From NCBI GenBank assembly GCA_053919585.1, contig CM132823.1: a stretch of 64,000 nucleotides of DNA; one strand, given 5' to 3'. Shown piece by piece: positions 8,293 through 51,133 of this stretch; the stretch's first letter is position 1; each line of letters opens with the position of its first letter. A model generated the notes under the pieces. It was given only the letters and a program-made list of their open reading frames with translations. It had not been told where the DNA came from and searched no databases. The DNA is from Euprymna scolopes. Its lineage: Eukaryota. The translations under genes were made by a program, and so were the position numbers.

Positions 8293-9527
8293 ATATTTAG
8301 TGTGCATTAATTTGAATATCATTGAGGCTTCACTCCAAAATGAGGTAATAAAAAACTTGTAATCGAGATGACAGAAAAGTCGAATTCTGAGAACCAAACT
8401 GAACAGGTCGGAATTTACAATGACGTTTGCATGCTAACTAGAATACATTTTTTTAATTGTAAGCTATTTCGGACGGAAATATGAAGTCGATGCGACCAAG
8501 ACGAAAGGGGAATTTTTGAAAATTGAAAGTATTGAAAAAGGGAGATTAAACGAGTTGCGTTGAACTTTAAAAATTGAAAGCATCAATAGATGGAAATATT
8601 AAAATGATTCGTGTCAAACATAGAAAATTTAAAGGGTCAAGAAATGGAAGATTGAAATGTGATTCGTGTCAGACTTTGAATCGTCATCTTATAATAGTGT
8701 ATTAGGATTCGATTGAATTTTTGTGTTTGAAAAGCTAAAAGTGTCTAGCAATGTTTGAGAAACTGGTATTCTCTAATAGTGTTTGAGAAGCTAGTAGCGT
8801 CCAGCAGTGTTTTAGAAGCTAGTAGTGTCTAGAAAAATTTGAGAAGCTAGTAGTATCTTACTGTAAAAAATTTGAGAAGCTAGTAGTATCTTACTGTATT
8901 TGAAGGGCTAGTAGTGTTTAGCAATGTTTGAGAAACTGGTAGTGCCTAACAGTGTTTGAGAGGCTAGTAGAGAGTAACAGTGTTTGAGTGGCTAATAATG
9001 TGTGGTGGTTTGGATACTAGTAGTGTCTAGTGGTGTTTGGGATACTAATAGTGTCTAGTGGTGTTTGGGATACTTGTAGTGTCTAGTGGTGTTTGGGATA
9101 ATAGTAGTGTCTAGTGGTGTTTGGGATACTAGTAGTGTCTAGTGGTGTTTGAGAAGCTAATAATCTTTAGCAGTGATTGAGAGGCTAGCAGAGCCTCGTG
9201 TTGTTTGAAAAGCTAGCAGAGCCTAGCATTGTTTTAAAAGCTAGCAGATTCTAGCAGTATTTGTGAGGTTAGCAGAGTCTAACGGTGTTGGAAGTTGATG
9301 TGATTGCCAATCATGGCATGGGGTTATGAGGTTATCTTTAAGGACTAGAGGGTAATGTAGTTTGACATGCATTAATTTGCATATCAATGAGGCTTTGCCC
9401 CCAAAATGACGTAATAAATAAACTGAAATCGAGATGACAGGAGAATCGAGTTCTGAGAACCGTACTGAACAGGTTGGAATTTATAATGCCGTTTGAATAC
9501 CGACTACAATACATTTCTTTTCAATTA
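8293..9527 (+). mobile_element. Non-autonomous TRIM-like LTR element
   Basis: Diverged direct repeats of about 170 bp at ~8293-8461 and ~9356-9527 (gcattaatttg..atcgagatgacag..ttctgagaacc..ctgaacagg..aataca). AGCTATTTCGG follows the first repeat (8462-8472). A purine-rich tract precedes the TGTAG start of the second repeat. No ORF. Outer boundaries approximate. Confidence 0.7.
8735..9290. repeat. 28-bp minisatellite (agtagtgtctagtggtgtttgggatact and variants) inside the TRIM-like element
   Basis: Tandem periodicity, best conserved at 9019-9150. Confidence 0.9.
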
Positions 9528-37739: not shown

Positions 37740-40260
37740 TGGGGTTACCACTTATCAAAGTCCGAAAGCCACTCAGGGATAAGGGTTATTGTGTGTACAG
37801 TAATCAATGAGATAGTATTGTAGTAATCATTAGTATTAGGGGTTTTTGATAGAGTGTCTTACTTAAGGGGGCGGTTTGTAAGGAGTTTGTTTATGTTGGA
37901 CTTGAAGACGTCCAAGTTGTAGTCAGATGGGAAACAGGCAAGCGGCAGAGAGTTCCACTGGCGTACAGTTCTAAGAAAGAAGCTTTGCTCATGGAATCTA
38001 CGTTTGGATTAAAACACAGATAAAGAGTGGGGAAAATTATTGACAGTAGTTTCAGCCATACGGGTGTTTCTCGTGAAAGATTGGCGAGGGGGGGACGAGG
38101 GATTGGAGCTCAAACGAGCACCTGCCATGGAAATAACAATAAAAGAAAGACAGGCTCGCAACGTCTCTTCTGTGGGAGAGAGGTTGCAGGGAAGAGAAAA
38201 GGGCACCCCCCACTAAACCACAAAGTCTATTTTGTACTCTGTCAAGGCAGAATAGGCTGTCTTTAGCAGCTCCTGCCCAGATGTGGTCTGTACTGAGAGG
38301 AAGATGACTTATCACCTGAATTTTTAAATACAGGGCAAGCTGATGAGGTTTTCCAGGGAGTCGGAAAGCACTTCTCCTTAAGGCAGCGCTTAAGCAGTTT
38401 CGTAAGTATGGGAACAAGTTTTGGTTGAAGCTTTTTTAACACTATAATTGGGATGCTGTTAGGGCCAGTTGCTTTACTGGAATCAAGGTTCTTGATTAGC
38501 TTGGCGACCTCATGCACAGATAGTTGTATGTTACCTAGCGTGTTCTGTGTTATAGGAGGAAATATGGGGAGTTGATGGACTTCGTCGCATAGGATAGAAT
38601 TAGCTGCAAAGTTCTTGGCAAATAGTTTGGACTTGTCTGATGCTGACGAGATGACCTCTGATTCATTGATAATGGTTGGGATAGAATGCACACTTCTGTT
38701 CAGGATCCTATTTGTTATTTGCCAAAACTGGTGGGAACCAAGCCGTTGATCTTGGATTTAACAGACTGGGCATATACCGCTCTTGAATTTTTTATTACTC
38801 TTTTACAGTGGTTGCTGGCAGTCCTGAAAGCAGCTTTAGTCTCAGTACATCGATTACGTTGGTAGTTATGGAAAAATTGATTTCTGTGTGCGATAGCAGC
38901 AGCACATTCTGTGGAGAACCATGGCTGGCTGTTAGGTTTTTGTTGGAATTTTTTGGATGGTATGAATTGGTCTGTGCCTACAATTAACCATTCGGTCAGA
39001 TCTGATACTATAGAGGACACTTCCTTTTTAACATGGAGTTCAGAGGTAAATCAGATATGAATGTACGGAATCTATCCCAGTCAGCCATAGAGTATCGGTA
39101 TACAGTACGGTGGAGGGGTATGTCTGGGAACTTATTACATTTCGCTTTTATCTTAACTGATATGACGGAGTGGTCGGAGGATCCTAGAGGAGAGTGAACG
39201 GAACATGAACATAACTCATGGGAGGTTGAGAGAAAAAGGTCTAGGAGGCTTGCATATTGACCGGGTGTATCGGGCACACGGTTGAGTTCGCGAACAATCT
39301 GAGTGAGGTCATAAGCAACGGCAAAATCATGACAAAACCTCCCCTTATCGTCTGTCTTATTTGAATGGGTTAGCCATTCCACGTTATGGACGTTGAAGTC
39401 ACCACAGATGTGGATGTTAGCCGAGGGATGTGCAGACAGGATGTGGTCTGTTTTCTCAGATATGCTCTCAAAGATAGTAACTCCGCTGTTGTGGGGCCGA
39501 TAGAAGGCAAATATAAATGCAGTGGTGTTAGCAAGTGCAACCTGGAAGCACATATAGGGTAAGTAAGGATCTTCTCTAGAGATATCCCTGTCACACGGGA
39601 AGCCATCTTTAATGTAGGTACATATTCCATGTCCATGGCGATCTTGGGGGTCAGATTTAGCTGTTAAGTTAGAGTATCCGTTAATTATGAACTCATCTAG
39701 GGAAGTGGTCGCCCCTATTCCAGTTTCGCTTAGAAATAATATGTTCGGTTTCGTCTCCTGTAATTGGGTTTCAACCTCTGGAAGGTTGGAACATAGACCC
39801 CTGATGTTGGAGAAGGAGACCTGGTAGTAGGGGTCTACGTTGGAAGATGGGGTTCTAGGTTTATTCGAGTTTTTTTTTCTGGAGATATTTCATGTTGAGG
39901 TTTTGGGATTTGTGGAACAGGTCGGCATATTTGGTTAGAGCAGTACAGAGAGGGAAAGTAAGAGAGAAAAAGACAGGAATTTTTTTTGTAGCACATGAAA
40001 AGGTAAAGCCGTAAAACTAGTATGGCATCGAGAGGCCCCACCAGAGACTATTGCATTGTCCAGATCCATTCACCAAATGGCAATACAGCAGTCCCAGTAC
40101 TTTGCGCCTGCTGATAGGACAGCCTCTCTAGTGGTTAATCCAAGGTTCGGGTCCCTGACTATCAGGCGTATAACGTCAGCCCAGACAAAACGTTTACCTC
40201 CAGCACCCTTACTAGTGACATGGCCACAAGGATAGACATAGAGACAGAAGTTTTCTGACA
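37740..40260 (-). mobile_element. CR1-like LINE (APE + partly deleted RT), pseudogenised
   Basis: FSNIRG, LSETG, YRPH, GDFNVHNVEWL, LDLFL, SSDH. KATGPNSIP, WKTSSACPVFKN, QYRP, then a jump to the C-terminal HIWAGA..LDRVQNR and RQWNSLP. Confidence 0.9.
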
Positions 40261-41561: not shown

Positions 41562-41579
41562 ACTTTCAAAGCAGCACAT

Positions 41580-42750
41580 ATTGGAACCTTCTCCTGAAAC
41601 TGTATCGCCCCCGTCTGCGTTATGCGAGCATCACCTAGGGCTCTGATGGCATCATAGCCTAGGAGCAGGTAAAAGCTGGCGGTTTCTCGAGTACTACCAG
41701 CGCTTCAATATTAGCTGAATTTCCAGTTTTAGTGTGAATGTTCACAGTGCCCACCCCGCAACATGTCCGCGTCGCTCCACTAAGGGTGGTTAATCTAGTA
41801 GTCTTCTTCTTCCGAGTGCGGCAGAGGCCCGCACTCACTACGGTGCGAGAGCACCCAGAGTCGAAGAGTGCCCAATCTTTTTACATCGGTAGCAGCGAAT
41901 AGCTGTCAGTCGCCGCCAGCAGTTCCTCGCAATGTGGCCCTGACACATGACTTTACTGTGCAGGACGGGCCCCTGGGATAGTCTATCCTCATTTAATGCA
42001 CGCTGTGCAGCAGCGACTACCGGTTCTCCCATCTCATAAGTATTGTTCATCACGGTCCTGGCCCGGTCTACCAGATCGTTAAGGGACAATGAAGCTATGC
42101 TTGAGCTAGCCTGCAGGAGTTGCTTTGCTCCGGTTGAGAGCCCTGCCAAAAATTTGCATGCCAAGGCTGGCTCAGGCAGCCCACCAAACAACACCATCAA
42201 TTTCGTCAGCTTGGCCAAATAAACGTCGACAGTTTCACCAGGATGCATGGTTCTTGCCTCAAATTGCTCCCAAGCAGTGGCGGGGTCAATAGCGAACGCT
42301 TTGTATAATGCCGCCTTGATCCTTTTATAATCCTGTTTTTCCTCAGGACTAAGCTGTTGATATACTGCAAAAGCCCTGCCAAACAGATGTAGAGGAACAA
42401 CATGTTCAATGTTCTTCATGCTAGACAACAGGCAATGTAGTTCCACCTTCTCCACCCAATCAAGTACTGGGGTCAAGCCATCGAATTCCGGTATTAATTT
42501 AAGGCCGAATTTGTCCCCTATTATGTCGAAATAGCTTGATGTTAAATGGGCTGGTAAACAGCAAAACGAAATAAACCAAATACAATACGCAAAAGTCCAG
42601 CTAGAATTCGTCACTGAAACTTTCTCTCTCAACTTCCAGCACGTCTCTCCCCACTGCCTCTGCCAACAGACATTTTATCAGAAAACTGACCCCATTCTAT
42701 TTGCATACATGTGCAGTGGAAGATGAGATCTGGTGAGATTCTATGAAACT
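41580..42750 (-). mobile_element. Truncated Gypsy-like LTR element (LTR, PBS, gag with zinc knuckles, protease remnant)
   Basis: gag KFGLKLIPEFDG..DWVEKVEL..GETVDVYL, with CCHC-type GHIARNC and CYRCKKIGH. LTR inner end (CA) at 42537, followed by AGCTATTTCGAC. Outer LTR end uncertain. Confidence 0.85.
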
Positions 42751-43259
42751 ACACCTTATAAATCCATGGCTGCCATCTTTAAATTCTCTTTCTCTCAGAT
42801 CGTATCTGAAGGTAAGTTGTATGACCGCACGACATACACACGGGAGTGGCGCTTTCTTCTTTGATTATTTCATTCAACTCTATATGAAGTCAACAGGGAT
42901 TTCTTTAACCACCACCAGGAAGCAACTGTTGCAAGAACTAATTTATTATTATTGGGGGGGGGGAAATCTTCAACTGAAGGTTATCAGGTTATTGAGGTTC
43001 TATGACAACGTTAGACATTTAATAACAGCTGAACCATCCTACCCTAATTCAGAATCGGTAAAAGCATTTAAAATTTTAGAAAGAAATTGAAAAAAGCCTT
43101 ATCACACTTCATATTTTAAACATTATATCTTAATTTTAATCTTTGATGCCTTTCTAGAAAGAACTCTATAGTGGAGCAATATTTTGACTGCAAAATTTTA
43201 ACTCCCGCTGTCGAGAACCAATGAGAGTACCTATCTGCAAAAAGAGAATGACAACTTAC

Positions 43260-45035: not shown

Positions 45036-48000
45036 TGTATCGAATTCAACTTCAATCGTCACCAATGCTCACAATAGTAACACAATAACCTCTCACATGT
45101 CCTGTTGTCTCAAATAACAAATATACCTCCGATTTTCACACAATAAATCAGTTTATCTCTATGTATCTCAATTCCAATCTTGGGATATCCGCTATTGCCT
45201 GGGATCCCTAAAAGTAATCTTAGTATACTTATGCGGTCTCCCACAAGTCCCTGGGAGGTTTGATCTCTCAAATGGGGAGCAAAACGCTCCCTTAGGTCAA
45301 TTAGGTTACACAGGTTCAGGTTCTGATTCAGACTCTGGTTCTGATTCAGATTCTGGTTCTGCTTTCGAGTCTGGTTCTGGTTTCGGGTCTGGTTCTGATT
45401 CTGTTTCTGCTGCGTCAGATGAACTATAATCATTACTCTCTGGTCTGTTGATTTCGTTCATCAGTAGCTCATCACTTTAGCATTCATTGCTCACCTCTAT
45501 AGTTGTATGATGTACCTCAGAAACTGGGCAAAGATCGCGCACATGATGCGGTGTTCCGTCAACTAGCACCGACTGCTGGCTGATCACCCCAGAGATTCGT
45601 CCTCACTTGAATTTGGTGGTGCACTGGTTTCCAGGTGGTGTCACCCAAACTCGATCCCCTACCTCATATTTGACATGTCTTTTCTGGTTGACTGTCTGTG
45701 CAGCATCAATTCCCTTTAGTCTAACACGATATATGTACATGGCATTGGCCGGCGCTGTTGTAGGTAATTTCCCATCCTTTGGTGTGACGTTATACCAATA
45801 CGTGGCCTCCATAATGGTACATTGCTTTCTGGCAGCAATTCTCTTAATGCTGCTGTGGCTCCTCTCAGCAATGCCATTCCTTGATGGCACATGAGTGCAT
45901 TGCAGCCGTAGTCAAACACCCTATTCATCTAACAGCTGCTGGACTTGTTGACTGCAAAAAACAGCATCGTTATCCGTCAAGATCTCTTCTGGCGCACCCC
46001 ACTCAAAAAAGATGGACGACAAGATGCGAACAACACTTGCTGAGTCCTGTCTAATCATGTATCGTCATACAGCAAAACGTGTGGGTCCACAATCGATAAG
46101 AGTTAGAAAGGGTTTACCACTGTAATGGGTAATGTCCATCGCCACCCACTGCCACACCTTCTTGACGTCAAATCATCCTTTTCGCTATTGCTCTGATGCA
46201 GAATCAATAGACTGACACGCCTCACACCTGCCTGACATCTACCTTTGTCACTGCTGAGTCCACACGCCTCGCAAAATACACTGTTCTCTTGACACCTGGA
46301 TGTCCACTCTGTGTATGAATTTTCTGTATTTGACATGGGCTAATCACGCCAATTGCAACTGCACAAGATCGAGCAGTGTGCTCCACACCCATCTTCATGG
46401 CTCCATACCATCTATGAAGTACACGGGTTAGTTGGTTGGCATTATTACAATGTGATGTTACCAGCGTTACCCCACTAATAGTCCATACTCAGAAATCAGA
46501 CTCTTCAGCATGTCTAGCCTTCACCGGATCAACATCTTGCTGGCTGCCTTAGTGCGGATTGTTGTCCACCTTGAAAGCGTGTCAGACACCCAGTGGTAGA
46601 TGCAGAGAATCCGTGTACAGGTGCAGTTTCTTCGATTGCCATTGCAGTGCGAGATTTATTCCCTTTACAACATTGTCCAGCTCTTCTAAGTTGATGTGTT
46701 GAGCATCAATCATGGGTCGCAGCCAACATGTGTCTTCAAACACATTCCCTGCTTGCTTTAATGCGACTCCTAATTCCAATGAACTAGTATCGACCCCCAA
46801 ATTTAAGTGGTCTGCATCAACTGTAGTACTTACCAACACAACAAACGCCCTCGTGTTTGTGCCTTGTATAGGCATGCGCGACAACAAAACTTGGGTTTTT
46901 ATAAGCGGAAGTCTCGAGGTTGTCAGGAATCTACAGGCGCATGAGCAAGAGAAGGGATTGAGATAGTGGTATAAAGGCAGGTCGAGTGAGAAGATTGTTG
47001 TTTTTGTTGTCATTGGACGTTACAGTGACGCATGCGTTAGCAGGTGATTAAGGAGGCGGTTTATTTTTGTGTGTCAAGTCGCGCACCTCGGTGAAGGTCA
47101 TATAAATCGTTCACCTCGGTGAAGGTGAAGGTCATATCAACACACCATTTTTACACGGGCAGTGTTTTCCTTGTTGACTCTCTCCAGGGTCTCAGTTACC
47201 ATCAGAGTTAGAAGAGCATCGTCAAGCACATCATCCCAACCTGTGGTTACCAAATTCGCTCTGCATTTGATGACACCCACAGCTACACGGAGCCAGCCAC
47301 AGGCTGGTCAGTGTCCAATAAGTTTCCTACATCAGGACAAAATTGTCCGCCTTGTAACAACCTCAGAGATGCCTGGAATCCCACTGCCATGCCTCCATTA
47401 TAGGGTGCTGTCTTCCTCACAGACGTCTAATGCCAATGCACACGCCCCATCCCTCAGACGTTCAGGTTCTTGCACTGCAGACCAAACTGAGCCAATTTTT
47501 CCCTGACACACGATGCAGATTTTATGTCCTCATTGATGTACACATCGTCAATATAGGCTGATGTTGCGTCCTCAATGGTCTTTTCTTGAGACAGCACCGC
47601 ATTCACAATGGTCTTCATGATCTGCGGTGCCACATTCAGACCAAAGCCGAGTCATGTTAGGCAGTACCTCTGATCCCGGACCACACTGACTGGAACGGCC
47701 ATAGCATCTCATCTACTGCAAATAGGCCTTCCGCAGGTCTAATATTGACACATTGGAGCCCTTTTGGCGCCATTCCCTCAGTTTGCTGGCGCACACGTAA
47801 GCCTCAATGTACTGGTTGAGCTCACGATAATTCAGCACTGCTCTTACTTTTGACTTGTTATGCTGGATAACCGCCATTAAGGGTATCAGACCCTTGGGCG
47901 GACCAAGCTTCTCAGGGTAGTGGATCAGCCATCCATCTCGGATCCACACCTTAAGCCTCATCAGGCATAAGGTATTCTATGACGCGATTCTTTAATTCAG

Positions 48001-49444
48001 TTGGTGCCTTTCCCTTGGTCCACTTCCATGATGCAGTCCAGGCCTGCTGGTTATAGTCATAGTCCACCTTAGATCAGGGCGAACGATGTGGATTACAGCA
48101 CACACCGGGTTTTTCAAAAAGCTCATGCTCACATCTCTTTCGATTGTCACTCCCCCCTCCAGTGCCTTGATAGCATCGTAGCCCAGCAGTACGTCGAACC
48201 CCGACAAATCTCCTCGCGTCACCAACACATTAATTTCTATGGCCACACCAGAGTCCGTGTGGACCTTCGCGGTTCCGGCTCCACAGCATGCTTGTGTCTC
48301 GCCACCTATTGTGGTGACTTTAATGTTCTTTTTAGTCCAGGTCCAACACAATCTGGCACTCATGATGGTATGTGAGCAGCCGGAGTCGAGAAGAGATGAG
48401 CAGGGCACTCGGTTCACGTACACAGTTATCGTAGGTTGCGCGTCACTTCGATCTTGTCTGGGGAGCAGGGCGGCGCTGACATCCTGCCCCCTGATGCGTT
48501 TTCCACACAGTTTTGGGCTAGGTGCCCTATGCCACCACATTGGAAACAGCGTAGTCGCCCCCACCCTTTATCAGTGCAGCTTCTTGCAAAATGACCTCAC
48601 CAACCACAACGGTAACATCTTCCATTAGTCACGGGGCTCAGACTGGGAATTGCTTTTGTCGCCATCACAACTGGTTCCCCCAGGTCCTCCTCATCCCTTA
48701 TGATAGCCCGGGCGCATTCCATCAAGTGCTCCATAGGCGTTGCGGACACACTAGTAGAGGCTCTCAACAATTGCTTAACACGGGTGGGAAGGCTGGCTAC
48801 AAATGCATATGCCAATGTCCTCTCCGACACTCCATTATCAAACAGCACAGCAAGTTTCTTCAATTCCGCAAATACCACATCCACGGTTTCTCCTGGCATA
48901 AGCTTCCTGGGGGCGAATCTTTCATAAGCCGTGCAAGGATCCATTGCAAATGCCTTGTACAGTGCATTTTTATAGTGGTCACATTAGCCTTCTCGATGGC
49001 ACTAAGTTGCGGATACACACTCAAAGCGCCCCCAGTCAATCTCAGGGGAATCACAGTGTGCACTCTCTTTACCTCACAGAGATTACAGGTCAACTCGACC
49101 CTCTCAACTCAGTCAACGACAGATGTGGACCCATCAAATTCTGGAATCAGTTTCAGATCAAATTTTGAGTCGGTCATTTTTCACAGCAATAGCCGAAATA
49201 GCTTGTATCGAATTCAACTTCAATCATCACCAACGCTCGCAATAGTAACACCATAACCTCTTGACTGTAAACGACACTGTTCCTTCCTCTCACTCAAGCT
49301 TGCTTTTATGCAGTTTTTCACCCTGTCTCATTTGCATGTGTGCCCTCTGTTTTCTCCTGATCTCCTGAACCACATAGTCGAAACGACAACACTCAACTCG
49401 ACGTCTCGCAAAGAGACACAATGAATAATGACAAACTTATTACA
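45036..49444 (-). mobile_element. Compact Gypsy-like LTR retrotransposon (gag-PR-RT-RNase H-IN), defective
   Basis: gag MTDSKFDLKLIPEFDG; PR LLDSGCSHT; RT RAVLNYRELN, LDLRKAYLQ, LGFGLNVAP, YIDD; RNase H VDTSS, QHINLEELD, LYTDS; IN GHPGV, MDITH, TDND, NGIAERSH. Terminal repeats share 57 bp (45036-, 49204-). ATTC flanks both ends (45032-5, 49445-8). Confidence 0.9.
46822..47136. mobile_element. Solo LTR inserted at the RT/RNase H junction
   Basis: 315-bp insert starting TG and ending CATA, flanked by a TCAAC duplication (46817-21, 47137-41). Removing it restores WCVD-ADHLNLGVDTSS. Confidence 0.75.
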
Positions 49445-50365: not shown

Positions 50366-50631
50366 AAATACCCGAGTGTTCTCATAAGAATTGAGGTAGC
50401 CGGAAATACCCGAGTGTTCTCATAAGAATTGAGGTAGCCGGAAATACCCGAGTGTTCTCATAAGAATTGAGGTAGCCGGAAATACCCGAGTGTTCTCATA
50501 AGAATTGAGGTAGCCGGAAATACCCGAGTGTTCTCATAAGAATTGAGGTAGCCGGAAATACCCGAGTGTTCTCATAAGAATTGAGGTAGCCGGAAATACC
50601 CGAGTGTTCTCATAAGAATTGAGGTAGCCGG
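50366..50631. repeat. Seven perfect tandem copies of a 38-bp unit (aaatacccgagtgttctcataagaattgaggtagccgg)
   Basis: Identical head-to-tail units with no spacers. Confidence 0.97.
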
Positions 50632-51133
50632 AATTCAAATCGAAAATTCGAAACGAAATTACGTGAGGAATTCACAAATAGACAAATCGGCGTTAACTAG
50701 AAAAGCCCCCCCCCCCAAAAAAAAACCATTCTGCCCACATGTTGCGTGACTGTAATTTGTTTTAAAGCAGACTTTTGCTGGTATGTTATGCAAATGAGTT
50801 CTTTTTTTATTGTCAAAAAACCTCTAGGAATTTGAAACAGGACAATTTTTGTTCCAGAGTTTTTTTTCAACTCGGGTTTTTGAAATGTATGCGAATTTTT
50901 TCTTGACTGTTCATTGAAAATGAAAGTTTTTGTTTTTGTTAAACAGTAAAAAGAAATGAAATTCTTTTGCTTATAGATTAGCACATTACTATTCATTTAT
51001 ACAAATATTCTCTTTTTTCTATTTCTTCGTCTAGAATTTTGTCTCACAGTAGAACATTTTGAAGAAGGAAAATCCCCTCCCTATTTTATTTTACTTTCAA
51101 AGTTTTATACCTGGACACCCCAAGTGATAAGAA

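Follow-up and report, generated by a model that had tools for sequence, protein, structure and literature searches.

A 12-mer complementary to the 5′ end of tRNA-Phe directly after the LTR in a lineage of retrotransposons, and a putative new form of tRNA-fragment priming

A 64,000-nucleotide stretch of Euprymna scolopes DNA (contig CM132823.1, assembly GCA_053919585.1), here called the window, carries two decayed LTR retrotransposons in which the LTR adjoins a 12-mer complementary to the 5′ end of tRNA-Phe. A first-pass annotation had described them as two diverged Gypsy-like families with the same unusual primer-binding site (PBS). This raises the question of whether the 12-mer is a primer site, in which elements it occurs, and what primer it would bind. 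The features concerned are as follows, element B being the locus under study at 42.5 kb and element A the one at 49 kb.

42525..42536, minus strand: 12-mer at the PBS position of element B, 11/12 complementary to nt 1–12 of tRNA-Phe, with one substitution in the window copy
42537..42884, minus strand: 5′ LTR of element B, 348 bp, its CA end adjoining the 12-mer; placed by the paired LTRs and 5-bp target duplications of family copies
41838..42521, minus strand: gag of element B (Retrotrans_gag, E 2.6e-6; zinc knuckle), decayed, start lost
41565..41880, minus strand: start of pol of element B, protease with a DSG motif; internal deletion near 41870
49192..49203, minus strand: 12-mer at the PBS position of element A, AGCTATTTCGGC, 12/12 complementary to nt 1–12 of tRNA-Phe
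49204..49374, minus strand: 5′ LTR of element A, TG...CA; placed by the match extent in 16 dispersed copies
45100..49191, minus strand: gag-PR-RT-RH-IN of element A, decayed; same lineage, 40–45% identical to the pol protein P0001
45036..45096, minus strand: 3′ LTR remnant of element A, recognised by sequence, end approximate
46822..47136, plus strand: solo LTR inserted in element A, flanked by a 5-bp duplication and belonging to a third family of this lineage

Element B: The minus strand reads AGCTATTTCGAC at 42536..42525, preceded by ...TTTAACATCA (...AACATCA), and the frame KFGLKLIPEFDG starts 15 nt downstream. The annotated order of LTR, 12-mer with an 11/12 match to the tRNA-Phe 5′ complement, and gag is borne out here. 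The window copy belongs to the lineage but is decayed and truncated; it is cut off at 41565, and neither RT nor a 3′ LTR lies inside the window. Its 12-mer is a one-base-decayed AGCTATTTCGGC, and this variant is common only to the segmental duplicates of the window on the same contig. The region with elements A and B is a segmental duplication that is present four times on G000:C41 (26.2, 29.3, 30.35, and 32.05 Mb), with a mutual identity of 96–99%. Elsewhere, the window contains a long tandem repeat of a 37-bp unit, strongly skewed in GC and AT (1 to about 9000), endonuclease- and RT-like frames on the minus strand (38000–39900) that presumably belong to a LINE-type element, and a 40-bp unit in about seven copies (50370–50640) beside a long AG run.

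The 42.5-kb family: A genome search with positions 42300–42780 gave 2,918 candidates, of which 40 were scored and 30 fetched, namely the window with its segmental duplicates (four copies) and 26 dispersed copies. AGCTATTTCGGC is read in 20 of the dispersed copies, and the other six differ from it by one base. The LTR is about 348 bp long (TGTAG...TCA), with a purine tract ahead of the 3′ copy. A second LTR is present in 16 of the 19 longer stretches and ends at the position of the 5′ LTR in 12 of them. Ten pairs have both outer ends, and their 5-bp target duplications are perfect in six, have one mismatch in two, and are lacking in two. The paired LTRs and duplications place the LTR boundary exactly where it had been annotated. 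A TGG-type site was not found, as no TGG occurs within 53–56 nt past either window LTR. In L073–L088, the dinucleotide preceding the terminal CA is not the same in the 5′ and 3′ LTR of five of 12 pairs, well above the LTR divergence of roughly 5%; these differences may reflect an error hot spot adjoining the primer. A tree of 19 copies of one young family has too little signal to show whether variant sites arose repeatedly.

Comparison of the two families: The gags of elements A and B are homologous and clearly diverged, with 56% identity in an alignment of 66 aa and 45% in one of 158 aa. Their LTRs do not align, the best matches being 7–10 nt (E 1.1 or worse). The 12-mer, directly after the LTR and complementary to tRNA-Phe nt 1–12, is the conserved island between them, as the annotation had proposed. 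The junction pattern of the 49-kb family was recovered in 13 of 16 dispersed copies, with the 12-mer exact in seven and changed at one base in six.

The 12-mer across the genome: A chance match or a mis-set LTR boundary could be argued from the window alone, where the motif count is at chance level (four matches with ≤2 mismatches versus 2.9 expected). The match at 8462, with no gag behind it, was rejected as a primer site and is attributed to chance. The significance of the 12-mer comes from its position and copies and not from the window count. Genome-wide, CAAGCTATTTCGGC (CA plus the 12-mer) has 5,481 exact sites and its reversed control has one, and the boundary is fixed by paired LTRs and target duplications; the chance explanation is thereby refuted. 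When the three middle bases are left free, there are 7,830 sites versus 365 for the control. A sample of 59 sites (the first 30 and 29 more) forms 22 sequence clusters with unrelated LTR ends and leaders, the flanks being unrelated at 30/30 and 29/29 sites. The shared site of the annotation therefore stands, but its count of two families does not, as the genome holds at least 22 clusters and there are relatives elsewhere. The elements are compact, at about 4.2–4.6 kb. Among 20 longer stretches, 14 have a second LTR, with a perfect 5-bp duplication in seven of these, and the LTR pairs of L246, L251, and L260 are 100% identical. Identical LTRs together with 5-bp duplications indicate that recently mobile copies use the 12-mer site.

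The partner RNA: AGCTATTTCGGC is the exact complement of nt 1–12 of tRNA-Phe(GAA) of the E. scolopes genome. The sequence GCCGAAATAGCTCAG has 695 sites in the genome, mostly in arrays, and ARAGORN starts tRNA-Phe(GAA) at the G of GCCGAAATAGCTCAG in five of eight loci. Among 714 tRNA-Phe calls in 20 stretches, 613 begin with the exact complement, and 19 more are calls offset by one base. A tandem tRNA-Phe array with a 219-bp period occupies G000:C28:101706000-101860000, with more than 680 calls in 154 kb, and extends further. The match is limited by tRNA nt 1 on one side and the CA of the LTR on the other. Base composition at the 59 sites is mixed from the first position past the 12-mer, which indicates that the complementarity ends at tRNA nt 1. 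The duplex at the 12-mer is predicted at −20 kcal/mol, compared to about −9 to −11 for one with the tRNA 3′ end. A point against the 5′ end as partner is that, within a tRNA, this strand forms part of the acceptor-stem duplex and would have to be opened. As the 12-mer is at the primer-site position and complementary to nt 1–12 of a host tRNA, it would be a functional PBS, and nt 1–12 of tRNA-Phe, rather than the CCA end, probably prime reverse transcription.

Variant sites: AGCTATCTCGGC is found at 505 sites (L333–L362) in at least eight families, including young copies. A matching tRNA gene is seen in only one of the 714 tRNA-Phe calls, which counts against the reading of tRNA-Phe as primer and rules out a tRNA gene variant as the origin of AGCTATCTCGGC. 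A further variant, AGCTATTCCGGC, belongs to one young family and is likewise not accounted for by tRNA gene variants. Candidate causes of the recurrence of both are editing or modification of the primer, at A6 for the recurrent T-to-C variant, or a tolerated position.

Priming by the element itself: Self-priming is known for Tf1/sushi elements (PMC7175516), and a primer of Tf1 type, one from an LTR splice junction, or another small RNA with such a 3′ end could be proposed here. However, the LTRs hold no complement, the longest complementary stretch being 5–7 nt. The best self-complement of the 12-mer has 3–5 mismatches in all 13 own elements and 3–4 mismatches in 48 of 49 loci from other organisms; the remaining locus has a 1-mismatch self-complement somewhere on the sense strand. 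In addition, the unrelated LTRs of 22 clusters are followed by one common 12-mer that corresponds to the tRNA start base for base. Such a primer is largely refuted and very improbable.

Binding of uncut tRNA: Intact tRNA-Phe may also be bound by its 5′ strand without being cut, for packaging or dimerisation, or with priming from an internal 2′-OH or a protein. Complementarity alone cannot demonstrate cleavage, and the D-loop is predicted to pair weakly, in addition, with the end of the LTR. That pairing, however, falls on the terminal inverted repeat and is not the same from family to family. No spacer separates the site from the LTR, in the fashion of a primer site, and the 9-nt complement of the tRNA-Phe 3′ end is absent from all 13 own elements. 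This makes an uncut tRNA an unlikely partner.

Proposed mechanism: In priming by the 12-nt 5′ piece of tRNA-Phe, nt 1–12 would pair with the element RNA, with nt 12 adjoining the last base of the LTR, and synthesis into the LTR would start from a free 3′ end at nt 12. The position of this end is based on the direction of minus-strand synthesis, which is established. A cut in the D-stem would be required, because extension into the LTR needs that free 3′ end. The cutter may be the RNase H of the element, acting on the RNA duplex as Tf1 does on its own transcript, where the primer is the first 11 bases and the cut falls between bases 11 and 12 (PMC7175516).

The same 12-nt primer could be host-made, with a host nuclease yielding 5′ tRNA-Phe fragments (D-loop cut and trimming) that the element captures. 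Host-made 5′ tRNA fragments are well known. The copy L064 (also L382) is complementary to tRNA-Phe over 15 nt in register, the added three positions taking the place of the LTR's final bases by way of two substitutions. Such a site could be the trace of a longer fragment, and it hints at a host-made cut. L064 is a single case, however, for which a second LTR was not found. A genome search for longer tRNA capture gave two sites, and the match is extended in neither. L062 and L063 were rejected as elements, as they are tRNA gene fragments. The use of truncated tRNA primers by Copia-group elements (PMC6317226, PMC10886601) is also in line with a host-made fragment. On the other hand, all 22 clusters have a site of exactly 12 nt, whereas tRNA fragments are described as 16–35 nt long (PMC7515703). 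A host-made primer is thus a possibility of some weight but not the expected one. As to the cutter itself, the RNase H of the element is slightly favoured over a host nuclease, because the 12-nt length is fixed.

Domain composition: The label Gypsy-like is correct for the domain order only, because neither RT nor RNase H came out as Gypsy-type in the tests made. The pol order is PR-RT-DUF7047-RNase H-integrase; Pfam recognises RT-(RH)-IN in 7/7 homologues and the protease in P0009. In common with Ty3/Gypsy (Metaviridae), the elements have CX2CX4HX4C knuckles (two in each of 3/3 gags), PR-RT-RH-IN order, TG...CA ends, 5-bp duplications, and a polypurine tract. Some integrases have a GPY-like motif, and the strict GPF/Y pattern occurs in 2/5 proteins. 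In contrast to Ty3/Gypsy, RVT_1 scores are weak (28–34 bits in 7/7 pol proteins versus about 140 for the Gypsy RTs of the genome), DUF7047 takes the place of the RT_RNaseH families, and a 3′-tRNA site is lacking. RT_RNaseH and RT_RNaseH_2 match none of the seven pol proteins, which have weak RVT_3 or RNase_H matches instead. The RT motif is YLDD, YIDD, or YVDD in the six proteins shown. The D-E-D-D residues of RNase H are kept in 25, 25, 24, and 25 of 25 pol proteins, and the catalytic positions of all three enzymes (RT, RNase H, and integrase) are unchanged in 23–25 of 25 rows. RNase H follows within about 20 residues of the DUF7047 (thumb-like) block. In Odin, Lokiretroviruses, and Retroviridae, a tether domain lies between RT and RNase H.

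Relation to known groups: RT segments have a median of 34 bits to five Gypsy RTs (197 within Gypsy) and of 22 to four BEL RTs. Quick trees, in which LINE and Copia rows have long branches and from one of which 11 rows were dropped, set the RT apart from the five unnamed Gypsy RTs of the genome by a long branch. Since the RT is distant from all nine RTs sampled (five Gypsy, four BEL), membership in Ty3/Gypsy is not established. BEL/Pao (Belpaoviridae) was rejected on the low RT score to BEL and on the absence of Peptidase_A17 from 7/7 pol proteins. A sequence search against solved structures returned retroviral integrases and a foamy RT, and no Ty3 RT. A folded model of low confidence by pTM superposes on a caulimovirus RT-RH over 483 columns with an rmsd of 5.5, and is about equally close to foamy, caulimovirus, HIV, and MLV RTs, at 12–16% identity.

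Troyka and the Kuafuorterviruses are comparable in being an animal LTR lineage that has been neglected and that has the domain order of Gypsy but lies outside it (PMC12440569, PMC11673190). Troyka, however, is described with CG...CG ends, 3-bp duplications, CX2CX8-10HX4C, and xADD (IADD/VADD/LADD), none of which is seen here, and was rejected as the family on termini, duplication length, and motifs (PMC12440569). The half-tRNA Copia elements (Drosophila copia, Ty5, Osser, Bryco, Bianca, and the fungal Helenus partners) also have a 3′-truncated tRNA as primer (PMC6317226, PMC10886601). Their site pairs with the anticodon arm (tRNA-iMet, Ile, Tyr, or Asp), in contrast to nt 1–12 of tRNA-Phe, and Copia has integrase before RT, whereas it comes after RT here. 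Tf1/sushi (Ty3/Gypsy) is similar in its 11–12 nt primer from the very 5′ end of an RNA, its site directly past the LTR, and its need for a cut in an RNA duplex (PMC7175516). It differs in that the complement here is at the 5′ end of a host tRNA-Phe and not in the element, and in that the RT is not Gypsy-like by the tests run. Judged by sequence, the elements appear to work like LTR retrotransposons of Gypsy order, and they fit none of Troyka, BEL, Copia, and the Tf1 type. They may correspond to a numbered clade of the MolGy or PolGy series; in the source text available, these clades are defined without PBS data.

Relatives in other organisms: Named homologues of the DUF7047-bearing lineage come from Hydra, Trichinella, Trichuris, decapods (Macrobrachium, Portunus, Petrolisthes), a barnacle (Amphibalanus), and a leafhopper (Macrosteles). 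A related group (P0210, P0216, P0221, P0222, P0230), for which the sponge Sycon is named, has single gag-pol frames of 1,340–1,420 aa, with an integrase region that is closer to Gypsy. From 25 aligned pol homologues, 78 metagenome and eight MAG loci were obtained, chosen by RT motifs only. A gag match is present in 74 of these 86 loci, and the gag start lies inside the contig in 58 (49 clusters at 90%). AGCTAT-NNN-GGC precedes gag in 47/58, in 44 of them after CA, compared to 12 of 5,344 control windows. The other 11 comprise eight with a form of 1–2 mismatches after CA, one cut by the contig end, and two without the site. NNN is TTC in 12 loci, CTA in 12, CGC in nine, CAC in eight, CCC and CCG in two each, and TAC and TCC in one each.

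The site variation is concentrated opposite tRNA nt 4–6. Eukaryotic tRNA-Phe genes generally keep positions 1–3 and 7–12 and would differ between taxa at positions 4–6. On the quick RT tree, the deep-branching clades of the E. scolopes genome all carry the form matching its own tRNA (rows L247, L248, and L252 are TTC), and the CTA form is one clade. The distribution of CTA needs no host matching, because inheritance alone explains one clade. No tRNA-Phe turned up when the 86 foreign loci were scanned for tRNA genes, and the only host tRNA-Phe here is that of this genome. The CTA-form locus L122 is held by runs labelled annelid metagenome, with the site unchanged in three DNA runs. Eight bacterial MAG loci (L187–L194) also hold the retroelement, with tandem copies in L190–L192; this is most likely eukaryotic contamination of the bins. 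Many metagenome contigs of 3.6–4.8 kb (L113, L127, L139, L147, L149, and others) have gag downstream of pol, an arrangement expected from collapsed repeats or from circles with a single LTR. A single-protein query of viral_contigs returned no relative, and the tRNA pattern search there found only phage tRNAs.

Significance: In the literature searched, which did not cover subscription journals and Repbase, no description of a 5′-terminal tRNA primer was found, whether by DUF7047 or by the literal motif. In the text accessible, the motif in its several forms returned only a tRNA paper and unrelated primer lists. None of the motifs is in the searchable supplementary files of PMC11673190, PMC6238403, and PMC8556966, and the available text of PMC4402516 has no passage on an unusual primer of Oikopleura Tor elements. 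Three primer types are described for LTR retrotransposons: the whole tRNA, the anticodon-cut half tRNA (Copia only), and the self-primer (PMC6317226). In the part of PMC10886601 available, truncated tRNA primers are reported only for Copia lineages. In pipelines that check tRNA 3′ ends only, for example in the methods given in PMC13524379, the elements would score as lacking a PBS.

The 12-mer is a real, lineage-wide feature, and it points to a new form of tRNA-fragment priming. The elements are possibly an unrecognised major lineage. The fuller proposal, of an animal-wide lineage at superfamily level with a DUF7047-bearing RT, whose RNase H clips 12 nt off tRNA-Phe in trans as a fourth kind of primer, is tentative and, taken whole, rather unlikely. 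CA-AGCTAT-NNN-GGC can serve directly as a marker of these elements, whose RT only just passes the threshold of Pfam. If true, the 12-nt 5′-terminal tRNA piece would be a fourth primer type, in a lineage with thousands of copies and recent activity, and very short 5′ tRNA fragments would gain a defined job. It would also suggest a relation between Tf1-type self-priming and tRNA priming, with the Tf1 trick performed in trans.
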